From the NCBI GenBank assembly GCA_038870975.1, contig JAVZJD010000001.1, forward strand, positions 160,001 through 224,000: a stretch of DNA of 64,000 nucleotides. The letters run 5' to 3'. How positions within the stretch are numbered: the first letter of the stretch is position 1; the number at the start of each line of letters is the position of its first letter. The DNA is from Candidatus Bathyarchaeia archaeon (GTDB lineage Archaea; Thermoproteota; CALKCG01; B24). This document shows positions 7,064 through 62,756 of the stretch, one piece after another. The notes under the pieces were generated by a model. It made no database searches. It was not told where the DNA came from and was given only the letters and a program-made list of their open reading frames with translations. The position numbers were made by a program, and so were the translations under genes.

Positions 7064-7393
7064 GGGGGTGGCGGGTTAAGGATCGGGGAGCTAGCCCTGC
7101 CCTGTAACCCGAAACGGGCTATATGCGGGGATCCGTTAACCATCAAAGGCGGCAGCCTGAACAGCCAGATGAGGTTTCACAAGCTAACAATGAGGCTTCG
7201 TCTCGTAGGGCTCGGTTGGAGACAGCCTCCTTGAAGGAGGGGGTGGAGTCTCTCCACCGCCGAACCGGGTCAGGCCGGGAACGGAGCAGCCCTAAGGCGG
7301 GCAACCGAGCGTTTGCGAGGGCGCGGGGTTGAGAAGGCTTGTGAAATACTCGGGCTGGGAGGGTGTCCACTTTGATGGGATGCCGCCATCCCC
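7064..7393 (+). ncRNA. ffs: Signal recognition particle (7S/SRP) RNA
   Basis: GC-rich; 5' GGGGUGGCGG pairs with 3' CCGCCAUCCCC; Alu UGUAACCC motif; helix 8 GGGUCAGGCCG-GGAA-CGGAGCAGCCC; helix 6 can form a GAAG tetraloop. Confidence 0.93.
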
Positions 7394-13264: not shown

Positions 13265-13695
13265 TAGCCTCTGTCTCTCAACAGAGGAAGTTTAAACTGT
13301 TGGGAAATCTTGGAAATTAAAGGTTCAAGCTCTTCTAATCCTTTAATCGCTCCACCTAACAGAAGTAGAAGTTTCTTCCTGACTTCTAAATTTATTCTAA
13401 CATTTCGGCTTTTGAGGGCATTATAAAGCCTTGTGGCAAGTTCTTCACCTTCATTATCAAAATCCGTTAAAATTATAATCTGTTCTTCGCTGGATATACT
13501 TTCAACAATAGAATCTAAACTTCGGTTTAATGTTTTAAGTGCTATTATTTTCCCTTCAAAACCTAGCTTCCTAAGAGCGAATTCATCCCTTCTGCCTTCA
13601 ACAATGCAGACACCGTGTTCAGACAGTTCATAGAGTTCTTCAAGGATCGATGTTAAAAGTTCTAGACGTTCATAGGTCCACTTCAACATGGTCAC
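13264..13695 (-). CDS. Small TOPRIM protein (UPF0292 / RNase M5-like)
   Basis: IVEGRRD, ILTDFD.EG. Confidence 0.8.
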   Translation of the reverse strand: MTMLKWTYERLELLTSILEELYELSEHGVCIVEGRRDEFALRKLGFEGKIIALKTLNRSLDSIVESISSEEQIIILTDFDNEGEELATRLYNALKSRNVRINLEVRKKLLLLLGGAIKGLEELEPLISKISQQFKLPLLRDRG

Positions 13696-14774
13696 CTCGT
13701 TATAGCTAAACTCTTCAACCTGATGTAAAGTTCATGCGCTTCAGTTACATGTTCGAAGTATTTTCTAACAGGTTTAAGACACTCATTTAATGATTTAGAC
13801 ACAGCTTTCTTCAAATCTAATGGATGTAATTCTCCCTTGAAGTAGAGGTCTTCAAGCTCCCGATAACTTTTAACTTCAATATCACCACCGTGACGCATTT
13901 CCCTTTCAATCTTAAGAATAAAGCCTGGTTCTGAGAAGAGAATCAGCCTACATATTTCGAGAACTGGGTTATTCTCCACCATTCTAGCTGGACAGTAGGC
14001 TTTCATAATCTTTTTCTCTATTTCATCTTCTTCATCATGTATAAATATGGCCGTTTCAGGCTTAGATTTACTCATCTTAAACTCATATATCATCTCTCCT
14101 TTAACACTTCCCTCCATCCTACCTAAACCAGCTAGACCTATGAGGATAGGAGTATGTAGTGCCACAGGTTTTTTCATGCCAAGTTTATCGGCTACTTCTA
14201 TTGCAAGAACATGCGCCCTCCTTTGATCCATACCACCTAGGCATAGATCAAGGTTGAGGTAGAATATATCTGCTACTTGCATGCATGGATATATGAGCTT
14301 AGAGAAGTCGACAACAGCTTCATCAGTTCTACGTCCCATTATTGTCAAAGCCCTTTTAACCCTATTCAATGTGAGGGACTTTGCTATTTTCAGCACTAGG
14401 CTCCAATAATCTCCTGATGAAACCAACTCATCGGCGTAAACTGTTTGATAACGATTCTTAGGAATTCCTAAAGCCTCTAGACAATGCTCTATGTATGCAG
14501 AGCACAACCTTATGTTTTCCATACTCCCGCCGAGTTTATCGTTTATCCATGCGTGCCATGTAGCTTGAAGGAGAATAGTTTCGACACCAGAGACTATAAG
14601 GTCTTTAAATTTGCGAGCCCATATCATCCATCCAATTGTAAATAAACCAGATGGTTCAACACCTATATAGGCCCTTAAAGGCTCATTTTTTTTGAGAAGA
14701 GAGTCGAGTCGTTCTTCAGTTATAATTTCTTCAAGCCCCCGCTTTATGATGGAACTATTCTTCAATGGTATCAT
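13692..14774 (-). CDS. tyrS: Tyrosine--tRNA ligase
   Basis: AYIGVEPSG, YP.MQVADI, GGMDQRRAH, KMSKS, LHP.DLK. Confidence 0.95.
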   Translation of the reverse strand: MIPLKNSSIIKRGLEEIITEERLDSLLKKNEPLRAYIGVEPSGLFTIGWMIWARKFKDLIVSGVETILLQATWHAWINDKLGGSMENIRLCSAYIEHCLEALGIPKNRYQTVYADELVSSGDYWSLVLKIAKSLTLNRVKRALTIMGRRTDEAVVDFSKLIYPCMQVADIFYLNLDLCLGGMDQRRAHVLAIEVADKLGMKKPVALHTPILIGLAGLGRMEGSVKGEMIYEFKMSKSKPETAIFIHDEEDEIEKKIMKAYCPARMVENNPVLEICRLILFSEPGFILKIEREMRHGGDIEVKSYRELEDLYFKGELHPLDLKKAVSKSLNECLKPVRKYFEHVTEAHELYIRLKSLAITR

Positions 14775-14888
14775 CCTTACTTGGAATGGAAATTGTATCC
14801 AAAATTTATAGGAGAGGTAAACTTAAACTTTTTCATAAACTTAACCCGACTGTTGATTAAAACTTTAAATCCAATTTTAACTTTTGAC

Positions 14889-14999
14889 TAGTGGGTGTCA
14901 GGTTACGCTATATCCCATATGACTAACACCAAGCGTCATAGATAAGGCGTCTACGCCTTACTTAGCTGGCTCTCTCCATATGGGACCTGACACCCACTA
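14889..14999 (-). ncRNA. Putative H/ACA pseudouridylation guide sRNA 1, enclosed in a 15-bp terminal stem
   Basis: Minus strand: lower stem CCCAUAUG/CAUAUGGG + AUA box; pocket GAGAGAG / UGUUAGU; K-turn (UAU bulge, G.A and A.A pairs); apical stem UAAGGCG/CGCCUUA; perfect IR 14889-14903/14985-14999; TTAATAAA about 30 nt upstream. Confidence 0.7.
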
Positions 15000-15020
15000 A
15001 GTTAAATGAAGACCTAGCTT

Positions 15021-15037
15021 TTTATTAAGGATTTTTC
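15021..15037 (-). promoter_or_regulatory. BRE/TATA promoter candidate for sRNA 1
   Basis: Minus strand GAAAAATCCTTAATAAA about 30 nt upstream of the terminal stem. Confidence 0.45.
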
Positions 15038-15120
15038 TTTGAAAACTTTAGACTTGTAGAAGCGTTAATCAATCTAGATTCTATGTGAGGAACTGGAGGC
15101 CTGGGGTACAGCCCTTGGAG

Positions 15121-15195
15121 GCCTGTCCCATGCTTGGGTTAACCCTATCCTCATAGTAAGCCAGACGGCTTCTCAGACGGGTCCGTCAGCATGGG
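15121..15195 (-). ncRNA. Putative H/ACA pseudouridylation guide sRNA 2
   Basis: Minus strand: lower stem CCCAUGCU/AGCAUGGG followed by ACA; pocket GACGG / UAACCCA; canonical K-turn (CUGA with C-UAU-GAGG); apical stem AAGCC-GUCU-GGCUU; begins 4 nt after the pheT stop. Confidence 0.78.
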
Positions 15196-15199
15196 CCCG

Positions 15200-16894
15200 T
15201 TAGGGTTTCTGTCCAAACCCCTTAAGCCTCACAATAGACATCAAGTTTATTTCAAAACCTGCTGAAGGATTTTCAAGTCCAAAGTTTTCAAGAACCTCTG
15301 GATGTATTTCACCTAGAAATCCTAGATTTTCACCAGTTGTAGCCTCTATGAATCCTATTCGTCCTTCTATGAAACTTGGGTGTTCACCAGGTTTTATGTA
15401 AAATTTTACGTCCAGAATCTTAAGTAGAGTATCTACCACGGCTTTAATTTCAGCATAGTCTGCTTCGGAATGTATTGAAACGGCGGCTAGTTTCCTAACG
15501 TTAATGGCTCCTGTTTCAGAATTTTCATCTAAGATTACAACATCATCTACTTCAAATATTCTCTGTGGATACTCTCTATGCCTATTTCTGGACAGTATCT
15601 TCATAAGACATGGCATAAGCCAATTCCTACAAACCGTATATTCAATTGTCTTAGGGTTTTCCAACTCCACGACTGGCTCTGGCTTAACTCTCATCGCTGT
15701 GAATAACTCGTATGGATTTGTTAAGACGTCTGTTATAACCTCTTGAAAACCTAAACCCACCATGACGAGTCTAACTTTTGCTGAAAACCTCTCCATATAG
15801 CTTTCACCACCTCTCGTGAAGACTTTAGGGATTTCTGGCTTTATACGGTCATACCTATATGCTATAGCTACATCCTCTACTAAATCTACTGGATGCATTA
15901 TATCGACTCTATAAGCTGGTACTTTTACTAGGACTTCTTCTTCAGAATATTCAGTAGCATCGTACCTCATCTTATGTAAGAACTCTAAAACTTCACTTAT
16001 AGTTAGCTTTTCGCCGAGAATCTTATTCACAAAGTCTAGGGAAAGTTTTACTTCTTGAATTTTTAAGTCAGGGGATTCGAAAACCTTTCCAAAAGGTGTT
16101 TCAACTGGATATAAGACTTTAACTCTGTATATCTCACCCCCTCTTTCAGCTAGTGAAGTAACAATTATATTCAACACGGAGTTCACTATTTTCCAATCTA
16201 AGCCAGTACAGTCTATGAAGATATTTCTCGTATTTGTATCAACTTTAGTATAATCTGAGTTTATTATAGGGGGCATTGAAAGCACTAACCCTTGTGAGTC
16301 TTCAATGATGGGGTATCTATCGAATCCAGCAAGAATGTATCCGTATTCTAAACCTTTAGGGTGATTTTCTAAAATTTCTTTAAGCGTCATCTCTCTACTG
16401 TGGTCTAAAGGTCTAAATTTGAAGTCTGAAGCTTTAACCGTGTATCTAACTGGAGGCTTGAATTTATCTAAGTCGTGAACTCCAATGGATGCTTTCCTAC
16501 GATTTCTACAGTAGGAAACATGAAGCTTCTCTTGTAGTTGGATGATACTCTTTAAAACCTCCTCGTCCATTGGTATATTTTTTACAACAGCGAATACTGA
16601 ACACGGTCGTATTTCACATACAGCCCTATCAACGTAAACGTTGAAAAAACTTGAATTAACGATATAATGAGGGGCACCTTTACTAAGACCCAAAAAACCT
16701 CTATACGCTCTTGCAAGCCCTTCGGGACTCAGCATGTCTGGTCTATTGGGAAAAATTTCTACTTCAAAGCCTTCACTATCGTCCCGTTCCCAGCCTAGAC
16801 CGATCATGGGGAGTTCATTTCTAAGACGGGTTAATGATAGGGTTAAACCTACAAGCCTTTCAAAATCTTTCAAGCCTACTCTTATCACAGGCAT
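15200..16894 (-). CDS. pheT: Phenylalanine--tRNA ligase beta subunit
   Basis: PNRPDMLSPEGLAR, QLQEKLH...RNRRKASIG.HD, PPIINS, P.YR.DI.HPVD.VEDVAI. Confidence 0.95.
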   Translation of the reverse strand: MPVIRVGLKDFERLVGLTLSLTRLRNELPMIGLGWERDDSEGFEVEIFPNRPDMLSPEGLARAYRGFLGLSKGAPHYIVNSSFFNVYVDRAVCEIRPCSVFAVVKNIPMDEEVLKSIIQLQEKLHVSYCRNRRKASIGVHDLDKFKPPVRYTVKASDFKFRPLDHSREMTLKEILENHPKGLEYGYILAGFDRYPIIEDSQGLVLSMPPIINSDYTKVDTNTRNIFIDCTGLDWKIVNSVLNIIVTSLAERGGEIYRVKVLYPVETPFGKVFESPDLKIQEVKLSLDFVNKILGEKLTISEVLEFLHKMRYDATEYSEEEVLVKVPAYRVDIMHPVDLVEDVAIAYRYDRIKPEIPKVFTRGGESYMERFSAKVRLVMVGLGFQEVITDVLTNPYELFTAMRVKPEPVVELENPKTIEYTVCRNWLMPCLMKILSRNRHREYPQRIFEVDDVVILDENSETGAINVRKLAAVSIHSEADYAEIKAVVDTLLKILDVKFYIKPGEHPSFIEGRIGFIEATTGENLGFLGEIHPEVLENFGLENPSAGFEINLMSIVRLKGFGQKP

Positions 16895-16900
16895 CTTGGC

Positions 16901-18406
16901 TCACCTAATCCAAACTGGCGCATTTCTAAGAAAGTCAAGGTCATTCATGACGAGGTCTCTCATATCTTCAAGACCGTAATTTAGCATTATGATTCTACCT
17001 GGACCTAAACCCCATGCTAAAACTGGTATCTCTCTTCCAAGAAGAGGTTTAACTACTTCTGGCCTGAAGATCCCAGCTCCAGCTAATTCAATCCATTTAT
17101 CCATAGCAGGATAATAAACTTCAACTTCAAGCGAGGGCTCGGTATAAGGAAAATAGGCGGGTCTAAATCTAGCATCTGGAAATCCAAGCTTTTTAAAGAA
17201 TTCTTTAAGATATCCTATGAGGTGCTTCATACTTGCGTTTTCATCAACTACGATTCCCTCGGTCTGATAGAATTCGCAGAGGTGAGTACGATCAGGTTTT
17301 TCATTTCTAAAAACTTTACTTACAGCGAAGAATTTAGCTGGAAGCTCTGCATCCCTGAGAACAGCTAATGTCCTAGCTGATAGACATGTTGTGTGTGTTC
17401 TTAGAAGTGTTTTCTTGGATTCCTCGGGATCCCAATGATAACCCCAACCCCTAGAACCTGTTGTCCATCCGGATTCATGAGTTTCCTCAATCTTTTTAAC
17501 TAGATCTTGATCTTGCAGTCTACCGAATTTAGGAGTCTTAACGTAGAATGTATCTTGCAGGTCTCTAGCTGGATGATCTTGAGGAACGTATAGAGCATCA
17601 TAATTCCAGAAGCATATTTCAAGTATGGGTCCCTCCATCTCCATGAAGCCCATTTCAATCCACACCTGTCTTATGTAGTCTAACACTTCTCTTACAAAGT
17701 TCAGTCTGCCAATCGGTATTCTATAACTTGGAAGTGTAACATCGTACTTCTTAAAAAGAACATTCCTCCATTTACCTGAAACTATTAGTTCTCTAGTTAA
17801 TCTAGAGACTTCTTCTAGGATTTCAACCTCACCTTTTAAAGCCTCTTCTCCAAGGGTACTCAAAGAAATGAATCTAGCGGAAGATTTCTCTATTTTAATG
17901 AGTTTCCTTTCTTTTAGAATATCAATAGCCTCCCTTAATTCCGGAGGGAGGCTACTCATGTAAATTCTACCTTCTGAGGCTATGAGCTCTATGAGTTTTT
18001 CATCAGCACCTTTAAAAGCTTCAGTCAATATTTCTACTTTTCCGGCTTTTACAATACCCCAGCCCTTCTTTTTAAGCCAAGCGAGGCCTATTGGCTTCTC
18101 CCAATCTTCGAGATTTACAAGCTCGGATATGCTTATGACACGTTTGACCCTAGCTTGCTCTACTACACGTCTCTCAGGCAGACCGAGTTTGAAATATCTA
18201 AACCCTTCATCTGTGAGTGTTATAACACTATCTTCTTTCGTTCTTATGCTAAGAAGACCCTTCAAACTCAGGTTTAAAGCTAACGTAAAAACCTTATCCG
18301 AAGGAAGTTTCATTTCCGATGCCACAAGCTCTACAGGTGCATCTTTACCAAGCTTCTCGAGAACCTTAAGGAGCCTTGCCTCATCTTCAGAAAGCCTAAA
18401 CTTCAA
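16901..18406 (-). CDS. pheS: Phenylalanine--tRNA ligase alpha subunit
   Basis: WNYDALYVPQDHPARDLQDTF, LRTHTT, FRNE, YFPYTEPS, GIFRPE. Confidence 0.96.
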   Translation of the reverse strand: MKFRLSEDEARLLKVLEKLGKDAPVELVASEMKLPSDKVFTLALNLSLKGLLSIRTKEDSVITLTDEGFRYFKLGLPERRVVEQARVKRVISISELVNLEDWEKPIGLAWLKKKGWGIVKAGKVEILTEAFKGADEKLIELIASEGRIYMSSLPPELREAIDILKERKLIKIEKSSARFISLSTLGEEALKGEVEILEEVSRLTRELIVSGKWRNVLFKKYDVTLPSYRIPIGRLNFVREVLDYIRQVWIEMGFMEMEGPILEICFWNYDALYVPQDHPARDLQDTFYVKTPKFGRLQDQDLVKKIEETHESGWTTGSRGWGYHWDPEESKKTLLRTHTTCLSARTLAVLRDAELPAKFFAVSKVFRNEKPDRTHLCEFYQTEGIVVDENASMKHLIGYLKEFFKKLGFPDARFRPAYFPYTEPSLEVEVYYPAMDKWIELAGAGIFRPEVVKPLLGREIPVLAWGLGPGRIIMLNYGLEDMRDLVMNDLDFLRNAPVWIR

Positions 18407-18409
18407 AAT

Positions 18410-19540
18410 CTACACTTCCCCGTAAACAATTCTCTTAGCTATTTCGACTGCAGTCTTAAGTTTTTCGTGGTGTTTTTCTAGGAATGCTTCAACGAAGTCG
18501 GCTGCTAACAGTTTGCACTCGCCACAGATTATCCTTCCAGCAATGCAATCTTCATATAATTCCGTAAGTTTACCGCTGAATGGATAGTTAAATTTGAGAA
18601 ATTCATAAACCTTGCATAGGTTTGGATTTCCACCAAATTTCTTCTGCTCTGCAATCGTAGGCTGCCCTCCGGTGAAAGCATTCATGATTTTTCCAGCAGC
18701 GACTTTAGGTGGATCGCCTAAGAATATACAAGTTTCTGGGTCGCTCTTAGACATCTTCTTACCAGCCTTAAGTCCAGATAAATGGACTATTATGAGGGCT
18801 GAGGGGAGTTCAAAGTCGTAGGATAGACGTGCCGCTAAGTCTCTAACGGCTCTTATATGCGGATCTTGTTCAGCTGCAATTACGGTAATCGAGGGCATCC
18901 TCCCTTCATACTCTGGAAGCTGAGGATGAAGAATATCTGCATACTGAAGTAGATTTGCAGCAATCTTACCGATGTCTAAATGCCCATAGATGGCTCTAAA
19001 CGTACTTTCAGTTATCTTTTTAGAAACCTCAAATGCAAATTCGTAGTACCGCCTCTCTTTTCTACTTTGAACATAAACGTCTTTCTCATCCAAGCCCAAT
19101 GCCAATACGTGCGATAAATTTTCAACAGCATATTTCTTAGCTACTTCTAGTGATGGAATCCTGCTGTCGGGTCTACTCACATAAGCATCTATATCGCATA
19201 TGGCAAAATAGTTCCTTCCACCATTATCTTTGAAGAACTTGAATACATCTACGATTATCTTATGACCGAAGTGCAGTTCGCCTGAGGCAGCTATCCCAGT
19301 CATATTTATAAAAGGTCTCTTGGATATAATACGGTCGTATACTTTTTCAAAGTCTCTTTGACCGATGACTATGTTTCTTTCGAAGCTCAAATGTTTAAGA
19401 TTGGATTTAATCTCTTCGGAAATCCTCTTTAGACCAAATTCTGTAAAAAGCTTTTCATAATCTTCTATGACCTCGGAACCCCATGGGTCTATAGTCAAGG
19501 AGACACCATACCCTCTGAAACTTAGGAGTTTACTAAGCAC
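18410..19540 (-). CDS. trpS: Tryptophan--tRNA ligase
   Basis: IDPWG, SGELHFGH, QYADILHPQ, EQDPH.R..RD, KMSKS, AFTGG; real start possibly TTG 19498. Confidence 0.92.
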   Translation of the reverse strand: MLSKLLSFRGYGVSLTIDPWGSEVIEDYEKLFTEFGLKRISEEIKSNLKHLSFERNIVIGQRDFEKVYDRIISKRPFINMTGIAASGELHFGHKIIVDVFKFFKDNGGRNYFAICDIDAYVSRPDSRIPSLEVAKKYAVENLSHVLALGLDEKDVYVQSRKERRYYEFAFEVSKKITESTFRAIYGHLDIGKIAANLLQYADILHPQLPEYEGRMPSITVIAAEQDPHIRAVRDLAARLSYDFELPSALIIVHLSGLKAGKKMSKSDPETCIFLGDPPKVAAGKIMNAFTGGQPTIAEQKKFGGNPNLCKVYEFLKFNYPFSGKLTELYEDCIAGRIICGECKLLAADFVEAFLEKHHEKLKTAVEIAKRIVYGEV

Positions 19541-62658: not shown

Positions 62659-62756
62659 GCCGGGGTAGCTCAGCGGGCTAGAGCGCCAGACTCATAATCT
62701 GGAGAACCCCGAAGCCCAGGGTCCAGAAGCCGAGGGTTCGAAACCCTCCCCCGGCA
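62659..62756 (+). tRNA. tRNA-Met(CAT), elongator type, with a 24-nt intron (62705-62728) at position 45/46
   Basis: Acceptor GCCGGGG/CCCCGGC + A73; D-arm GCTC/GAGC; anticodon arm CCAGA-CTCATAA-TCTGG; T-arm GAGGG-TTCGAAA-CCCTC; TTTAAATA about 30 nt upstream. Confidence 0.92.

Follow-up and report, generated by a model that had tools for sequence, protein, structure and literature searches.

The minus-strand element at positions 14999-14889 of the window (the whole stretch of 64,000 nt analysed here) is a genuine small RNA gene of 111 nt, located between pheT and tyrS, that has no annotation in this uncultured archaeon. With a probability that we put at about 0.83, its sequence marks it as a box H/ACA guide hairpin of the Pf7 motif 3/sR-h45 stem-loop 2 family, acting on helix 69 (H69) of the 23S rRNA. 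This assignment to a known family is based on the architecture, the target, the guide sequence and the neighbouring hairpin, and the element most likely directs pseudouridine (Psi) formation in H69. The first-pass annotation, made from the letters alone, had proposed an H/ACA architecture with a target at 1915 and/or 1917 in H69. This proposal is supported by tests against the organism's own rRNA, by conservation and by published homologues, and the earlier sequence and parse agreed with ours letter for letter. Psi1915 and Psi1917 of H69 are modifications found in all three domains, and archaeal guides for them have been described in a few euryarchaea, Ignicoccus and Sulfolobus. The features of the locus are listed in the Table.

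Table. Features of the guide RNA gene and its neighbours in the window. WC, Watson-Crick; BHB, bulge-helix-bulge.
Feature	Position	Strand	Remark
pheT, conserved upstream neighbour	15200..16894	-	
BHB around HP-A	15100..15217	-	5' arm 15217-15202 (last pheT codons); 3' arm 15115-15100
Sister H/ACA hairpin HP-A, canonical ACA	15124..15195	-	fits 23S U2586, 6+5 bp, 14 nt to ACA
TATA-like box, purine-rich BRE-like run before it	15018..15029	-	conserved in 16 class genomes
Closing stem, 5' arm	14985..14999	-	15 WC pairs with 3' arm
P1 lower stem, 5' strand	14977..14984	-	96.8% of cells paired (16 genomes)
5' guide strand GAGAGAG	14970..14976	-	complementary to 23S C1920-C1926
P2 5' strand and D-like half of K-turn (UAAG)	14961..14969	-	UGAG in most relatives
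Apical hairpin = canonical stem of K-turn	14943..14960	-	
C-like half of K-turn (3-nt bulge, then GA) and P2 3' strand, 1-nt bulge	14929..14942	-	
3' guide strand U-GUUA-GU	14922..14928	-	GUUA complementary to 23S U1911-C1914
P1 3' strand	14914..14921	-	class alignment
AUAUA = two overlapping ANA boxes	14909..14913	-	14 and 16 nt from G of GUUA
Closing stem, 3' arm	14889..14903	-	pairs with 5' arm
tyrS, conserved downstream neighbour	13692..14774	-	

Folding of the minus strand gave a minimum free energy of -56.1 kcal/mol (z -7.2), and none of 200 shuffles was equally good. The plus strand folds about equally well (z -8.1), so that folding energy gives no indication of the transcribed strand. 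Three features assign the element to the minus strand instead: its K-turn boxes, its ANA tail and, in P1 and P2 of the class alignment, 15 G.U cells that would become A.C on the opposite strand. A plus-strand transcript was rejected: the TATA reported near 14864 does exist (TTTAAA), but it is not conserved in relatives. The perfect enclosing stem described earlier has a possible 16th pair, U.G; the 8-bp lower stem was likewise found again, and the ANA box said to lie 15 nt from the upper stem is the first of the two.

The K-turn consists of an RA / UGA motif with an invariant flanking G-C pair. Its distal G.A is separated from the guide by 10 nt on the 3' strand, and the K-turn is positioned 9-10 layers above the pocket, as is characteristic of archaeal H/ACA RNAs. 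The replacement of one G.A pair by A.A is present as first noted, but it is not a defining oddity of the element. Among the 16 class genomes it occurs only in G000 and G001, published descriptors of the H/ACA K-turn allow 'RA', and in a published alignment the homologues from P. horikoshii and T. kodakarensis have AA here too.

A first covariance model of the hairpin was built from ten relatives, and a refined model was used for the search of the phylum. The hairpin proved to be single-copy in 16 of the 17 class genomes and the refined model found matches in 44 of 151 phylum genomes, related genomes not being independent samples in these conservation counts. In the alignment of the 16 class genomes, 97.7% of the cells of P1, P2 and the K-turn pair are paired; none of 500 shuffles reached this value, and slid controls of P1/P2 pairing gave 25-44%. 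Five stem pairs, namely four of the five P2 pairs and one P1 pair, show two-sided changes, confirming covariation of the stems across relatives. Outside the stems, GUUAG is kept in 43 of 45 homologues. Three model matches in family f18 (L229, L230 and L232) were excluded from the motif counts, as they have a different pocket, CCUUGAG / GUUCG. Their 5' strand fits 23S 1924-1930, and the guide may have been retargeted to the 3' side of H69 in this family.

The conservation pattern also bears on the idea that the element is a miniature transposable element with the 15-bp arms as terminal inverted repeats. This would account for a perfect inverted repeat in an intergenic position, but the source genome contains only one copy, the locus is the same across classes, and the arms vary freely in sequence with pairing kept, the conserved part being inside. 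Copy number and conservation pattern together practically refute this explanation.

Rfam searches of the window and of two compact phylum loci, in gathering and E-value modes, gave no relevant match to the guide, in agreement with its earlier description as unannotated. The HgcG model (RF00064) had no match in the source genome at E<=10. As its scores in H. volcanii and M. jannaschii likewise fail to reach the cut-off, this model is insensitive outside its seed group. Elsewhere in the window, Rfam places an archaeal SRP RNA at 7069-7388 (+) and a tRNA gene at 62659-62756 (+).

The loop and 3' strand of the source genome's H69 read UAACUCUGA-CUCUCUC, with C1916 and C1926 (E. coli numbering), and the consensus used in the first-pass annotation was wrong for this genome at these two positions. 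When the pocket was scanned against every U in the source genome's own rRNAs and tRNAs, the best site was LSU 2067, which corresponds to U1915 in E. coli numbering. Here, the pocket forms 7+4 Watson-Crick pairs with the organism's own 23S rRNA, UCUGA (1915-1919) remaining unpaired, and the score of 11 compares with at most 9 for other rRNA or tRNA sites. Shuffled pockets matched that score anywhere in the rRNA in 11 of 400 trials, a modest result (p about 0.03). The proposed register of GAGAGAG is thereby improved to seven Watson-Crick pairs, but that of UAGU with ACUA is reduced from four pairs to three, owing to C1916. The distances from U1915 to the first and second ANA, 14 and 16 nt, agree with a spacing of 15 +/- 1 nt between ANA box and target U; in all class members the distance is 14-17 nt.

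That more target bases are left unpaired than in canonical guides, as had been foreseen, is correct: instead of a UN dinucleotide, five bases are open. There is precedent for an unpaired UNN (PMC2377435) and, in Haloferax, for four unpaired bases, UVUN (PMC7075261). Five exceed the four shown to work and are without precedent. The UN dinucleotide would be restored if a single A-U1917 pair formed and G1918-A1919 bulged out. We rejected an alternative in which P2 opens and G1918-U1917 become paired, since P2 covaries with itself. The 3' guide duplex comprises only 4 bp and contributes about 0 kcal/mol on its own, which counts against the H69 reading, and the 3' guide arm has been reported to be the more important one (PMC2377435). 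On the 5' side, two pairing registers are possible because the guide has an AG repeat and the target a CU repeat. Comparison with Pyrococcus suggests that the last G of GAGAGAG may close P2 as a G.U pair, whereas two distant homologues with a shorter repeat favour pairing of this G with C1920 instead. Both registers leave five target bases open.

H69 is nearly invariant within the phylum. Covariation between guide and target is therefore uninformative at this level, and the argument from covariation rests on one cross-phylum contrast, in which both sides have changed: the haloarchaeal GAGGGU faces CCCUC, and here (A/G)AGAG(U/A) faces CUCUC. Families f2-f4 of the class have AGAGU against CUCUC or CUUUC. 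In several relatives the 23S rRNA gene carries an insertion just 3' of H69. Its length is 47 nt in G002 and about 555 nt in both G006 and G007; in G049 and G052 the insertion immediately follows C1924, within the segment facing the 5' guide.

Within the H69 reading, U1915 would be the primary target, since no unpaired U lies further 5' and its distance to the first ANA is 14 nt. By analogy with Haloferax, U1917 is probably modified second. It is rather unlikely, although it deserves consideration, that the H/ACA guide makes only one Psi, either at U1915 as in Pyrococcus or at U1917 as in Sulfolobus, or that it acts elsewhere. Such a restriction would not be unusual, as Pab40 motif 3 has been reported to make only the 1915 equivalent, and S. 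islandicus has the 1917 and 1923 equivalents with no 1915 site. Moreover, AGUC(A/G) in the 3' strand could pair with 1917-1921, the best site with a two-base gap in our scan (score 8.5). However, this register is not conserved outside the class and requires opening of P1, and the alternative rRNA or tRNA sites all scored below U1915.

The two overlapping ANA boxes allow another version of the mechanism, in which the guide shifts its register: GUUA and the first ANA (14 nt) would serve U1915 and UAG(U) and the second ANA (also 14 nt) U1917, with the AG-repeat 5' guide slipping by two on the CU repeat and the closing stem holding the ANANA loop. This would refine the best explanation rather than exclude it, but we consider it improbable. 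ANANA is present in 16 of 16 class members and in 36 of 45 homologues and does not follow the sister hairpin in this class; a canonical ACA is found in most relatives outside this family. All 45 homologues retain a G after GUUA, despite its inability to pair with G1910. In addition, formation of Psi1942 in Haloferax depends on a U or Psi at 1940, as would be expected if an A paired with U1915, and published single-site guides have 14 nt to the ACA, compared with 16-17 nt for dual-site haloarchaeal ones. The 3' guides of the published homologues are C-GUUAGUG in haloarchaea (16 nt to ACA) and GGGU-GUUAC in Pyrococcus (14 nt), and the two ANANA offsets, 14 and 16, are thus those of the single-site pyrococcal and dual-site haloarchaeal guides. 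On the other hand, C1916 limits the shifted duplex to 3 bp after a U.C mismatch, and its fourth base, U, is kept in only 28 of 45 homologues. Haloferax SL2 makes both Psi with one ACA, data that have been read as needing an unpaired UNU, and nine of the homologues have a single ANA. A slightly more doubtful proposal is that the closing stem and the ANANA tail form a module, in which two ANA boxes two bases apart let Cbf5 ratchet from U1915 to U1917 on one substrate. If true, the ANANA ratchet would provide a physical mechanism for dual-site H69 guides, and Cbf5 would work on an internal, clamped ANA loop.

The guide hairpin has a companion. The sister hairpin HP-A, first located through a weak model match, was found in 17 of 17 class genomes on the same strand, in the present window 139 nt upstream of the H69 guide hairpin and thus within the published range of 0-150 nt. 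The gap between the two hairpins is about 20 nt in families f15, f19, f23, f30 and f33, and they are separated in f4 and G008. HP-A is the equivalent of sR-h45 stem-loop 1 and Pf7 motif 2. It is enclosed by a canonical 3-4-3 BHB motif, which was found in none of 300 shuffles in G000 and occupies the same position in 10 of 15 class genomes; these counts come from a strict search, a relaxed one having picked spurious positions in several genomes. The central helix of the motif covaries (ACAG/CUGU, GCGG/CUGC, CCAG/CUGG). The 5' bulge falls within the final codons of pheT, so that cleavage of a read-through pheT mRNA at this point would take away its stop codon and set free an H/ACA RNA of 101 nt, possibly in circular form. 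Genes for the splicing endonuclease are present in the source genome. By eye, the upstream hairpin in f15 and f33 (L185, L220, L222, L231) appears to have a short closing stem of its own, CCCACUG with GGUGGG/AGUGGG after the ACA, and each hairpin may be clamped separately in these families.

The guide has its own TATA-like box, as had been noted from the sequence. It begins 29-31 nt before the closing stem in 12 of the 16 class genomes (29 nt in G000); in the three f4 genomes the distance is 32-35 nt, and the box is conserved at 29-35 nt in all 16. We infer that the guide is transcribed from this promoter on the minus strand. With archaeal promoter spacing, the predicted start site is the 5' end of the closing stem, which suggests that this stem is included in the transcript. 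A scan for bacterial promoters and terminators was uninformative, the host being an archaeon.

pheT and/or tyrS flank the hairpin pair in several classes. In the window, trpS, pheS, pheT and tyrS lie together on the minus strand (13692-19540), and the only large gap between them holds the two guide hairpins. The TyrRS carries EPSGLFTIGW at the expected site of the class I HIGH motif. A K-turn, an AG-rich bulge and a long stem between two synthetase genes, on the same strand as tyrS and 40-220 nt upstream of it in many genomes, could also be taken for a T-box-like cis-regulatory leader of tyrS. We regard this as very improbable. tyrS is on the opposite strand in f4, a divergent arrangement that largely refutes the leader, and is absent from the fetched flanks in several other cases. 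In the window it has a TATA-like run of its own near 14830, the Rfam T-box model gave no match, and the conserved bases of the hairpin are those that pair with rRNA.

The closing stem was found in 16 of 16 class members, where 8-16 bp join leader and trailer. Its sequences are unrelated between genera and families, with pairing kept, including G.U pairs, and in the phylum the duplex formed by the flanks has p<=0.05 against shuffles in 37 of 48 matches. In the family of the source genome it stacks directly on P1 without a 5' linker. It raises the stability at 75 C from -7.9 to -20.4 kcal/mol, a difference of about 12 kcal/mol. The earlier statement that the enclosing stem sequesters both ends of the RNA holds for the ends themselves, but the ANA box and the pocket stay open: in the folding ensemble, the unpaired probability of the ANA box and of the two pocket strands is 0.65-0.90 over the range 37-85 C. 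The 3' tail does not end as a free single strand, since its pairing with the leader begins 7 nt beyond the first ANA. The element departs from the canonical H/ACA features in two respects, the two-base target gap and the free 3' tail. In our literature search, which was a weak one, no description of a closing stem around an archaeal ACA box was found.

The closing stem is also found where the two hairpins adjoin, the H69 guide being the second, and no promoter separates them. It must therefore be older than the separate promoter and cannot serve only to protect a primary 5' end; structurally, it is an ancient component of the guide. On balance, its most likely role is to hold the short P1 together at high temperature and to define or shield the ends. 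That the closing stem belongs only to a precursor, or acts as an off-switch that is cut or unwound before Cbf5 loading, seems doubtful. The direct stacking on P1 would fit this possibility, as would the observation that the single-hairpin guides described so far end in a free ACA tail (PMC7075261), and the BHB around the sister hairpin shows that processing stems exist at the locus. However, no BHB was found at a consistent position around the H69 guide hairpin in the class genomes, and BHB processing of the closing stem was rejected for want of a 3-4-3 motif at a conserved position within it. Furthermore, the ANA loop never has fewer than 4 unpaired bases and can accommodate insertions as long as 41 nt, and the closing stem is retained in the adjoining pairs mentioned above.

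The source genome encodes Cbf5, Nop10, Gar1 and L7Ae. Its cbf5 gene (C2, about 281500, minus strand; L213/L214) is interrupted at the catalytic motif by an intron of 17 nt, which has a BHB-like fold and whose removal yields the catalytic GTLDP. Such cbf5 introns are known in Crenarchaea. In the established mechanism, L7Ae binds the K-turn, and Cbf5, Nop10 and Gar1 bind P1 and the ANA box. By the same scheme, L7Ae would sit on the K-turn of the present guide, and Cbf5 with Nop10 and Gar1 on its P1 and ANA box. The pocket, whose binding is deduced from sequence pairing, would open H69 of the pre-23S rRNA, with GUUA holding U1911-C1914, the AG repeat holding C1920 onwards, and UCUGA looping into the active site. 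The closing stem would join leader and trailer around the hairpin and leave the ANA box in an open loop.

If correctly assigned, the element widens the range of this guide family to uncultured Thermoproteota, where it occupies a conserved pheT-tyrS neighbourhood missed by Rfam. This variant offers a natural test set for the permitted width of the target gap, for whether the ANA box has to be near a free end, and for the use of one pocket on two uridines.

The closest described relative is stem-loop 2 (HP2) of Haloferax volcanii sR-h45, the guide for 23S Psi1940 and Psi1942, which correspond to E. coli 1915 and 1917 (PMC7075261, PMC2584109). In vitro, it modifies both U in sequence from an unpaired UVUN, including UCUG, and the ACA box is needed (PMC7075261). 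It shares with the present guide the target, the 3' guide GUUAGU, a GAUGA-type K-turn, an ANA 16 nt from the guide, a wide unpaired target (UAUG in Haloferax, with UCUG shown to work) and a preceding hairpin for U2586 (E. coli) on the same strand. The present guide differs in its closing stem, the TATA box between the hairpins, the two overlapping ANA boxes and, in the family of the source genome, a 5' guide that cannot pair with A1919; families f2-f4 keep a U opposite A1919 and resemble Haloferax. The alignments with H. volcanii HP2, Pf7 motif 3 and I. hospitalis were compared by eye. Pyrococcus Pf7 and Pab40 motif 3, Archaeoglobus Afu-4 motif 3 and the Ignicoccus hospitalis homologue (HgcG, RF00064; PMC2377435, PMC2584109) have GG-U-GUUA at the base of P2, a G.U or G.A closing pair, 14 nt to the ANA box and 1915 as the target, as found here, but they have a canonical two-base gap and the 5' guide GGGUUA or GGGUCA. 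Unlike the present guide, the Thermococcales homologues belong to a three-hairpin RNA. Sulfolobus islandicus sR148 (PMC11077068), from a crenarchaeon, is also an H69 guide, for the 1917 and 1923 equivalents, but it is atypical in having no lower stem, no ACA and a single 3' guide, whereas the present RNA is a classic full hairpin. The 159-nt H/ACA RNA of Nanoarchaeum equitans (PMC3491384) also has two K-turn hairpins beside the tyrosyl-tRNA synthetase gene, but these are separated only by the ACA. The clamped guide defines no new kind of system, and what sets it apart from the described members is its covarying closing stem, its own promoter, the five-base target gap and the overlapping ANA boxes.
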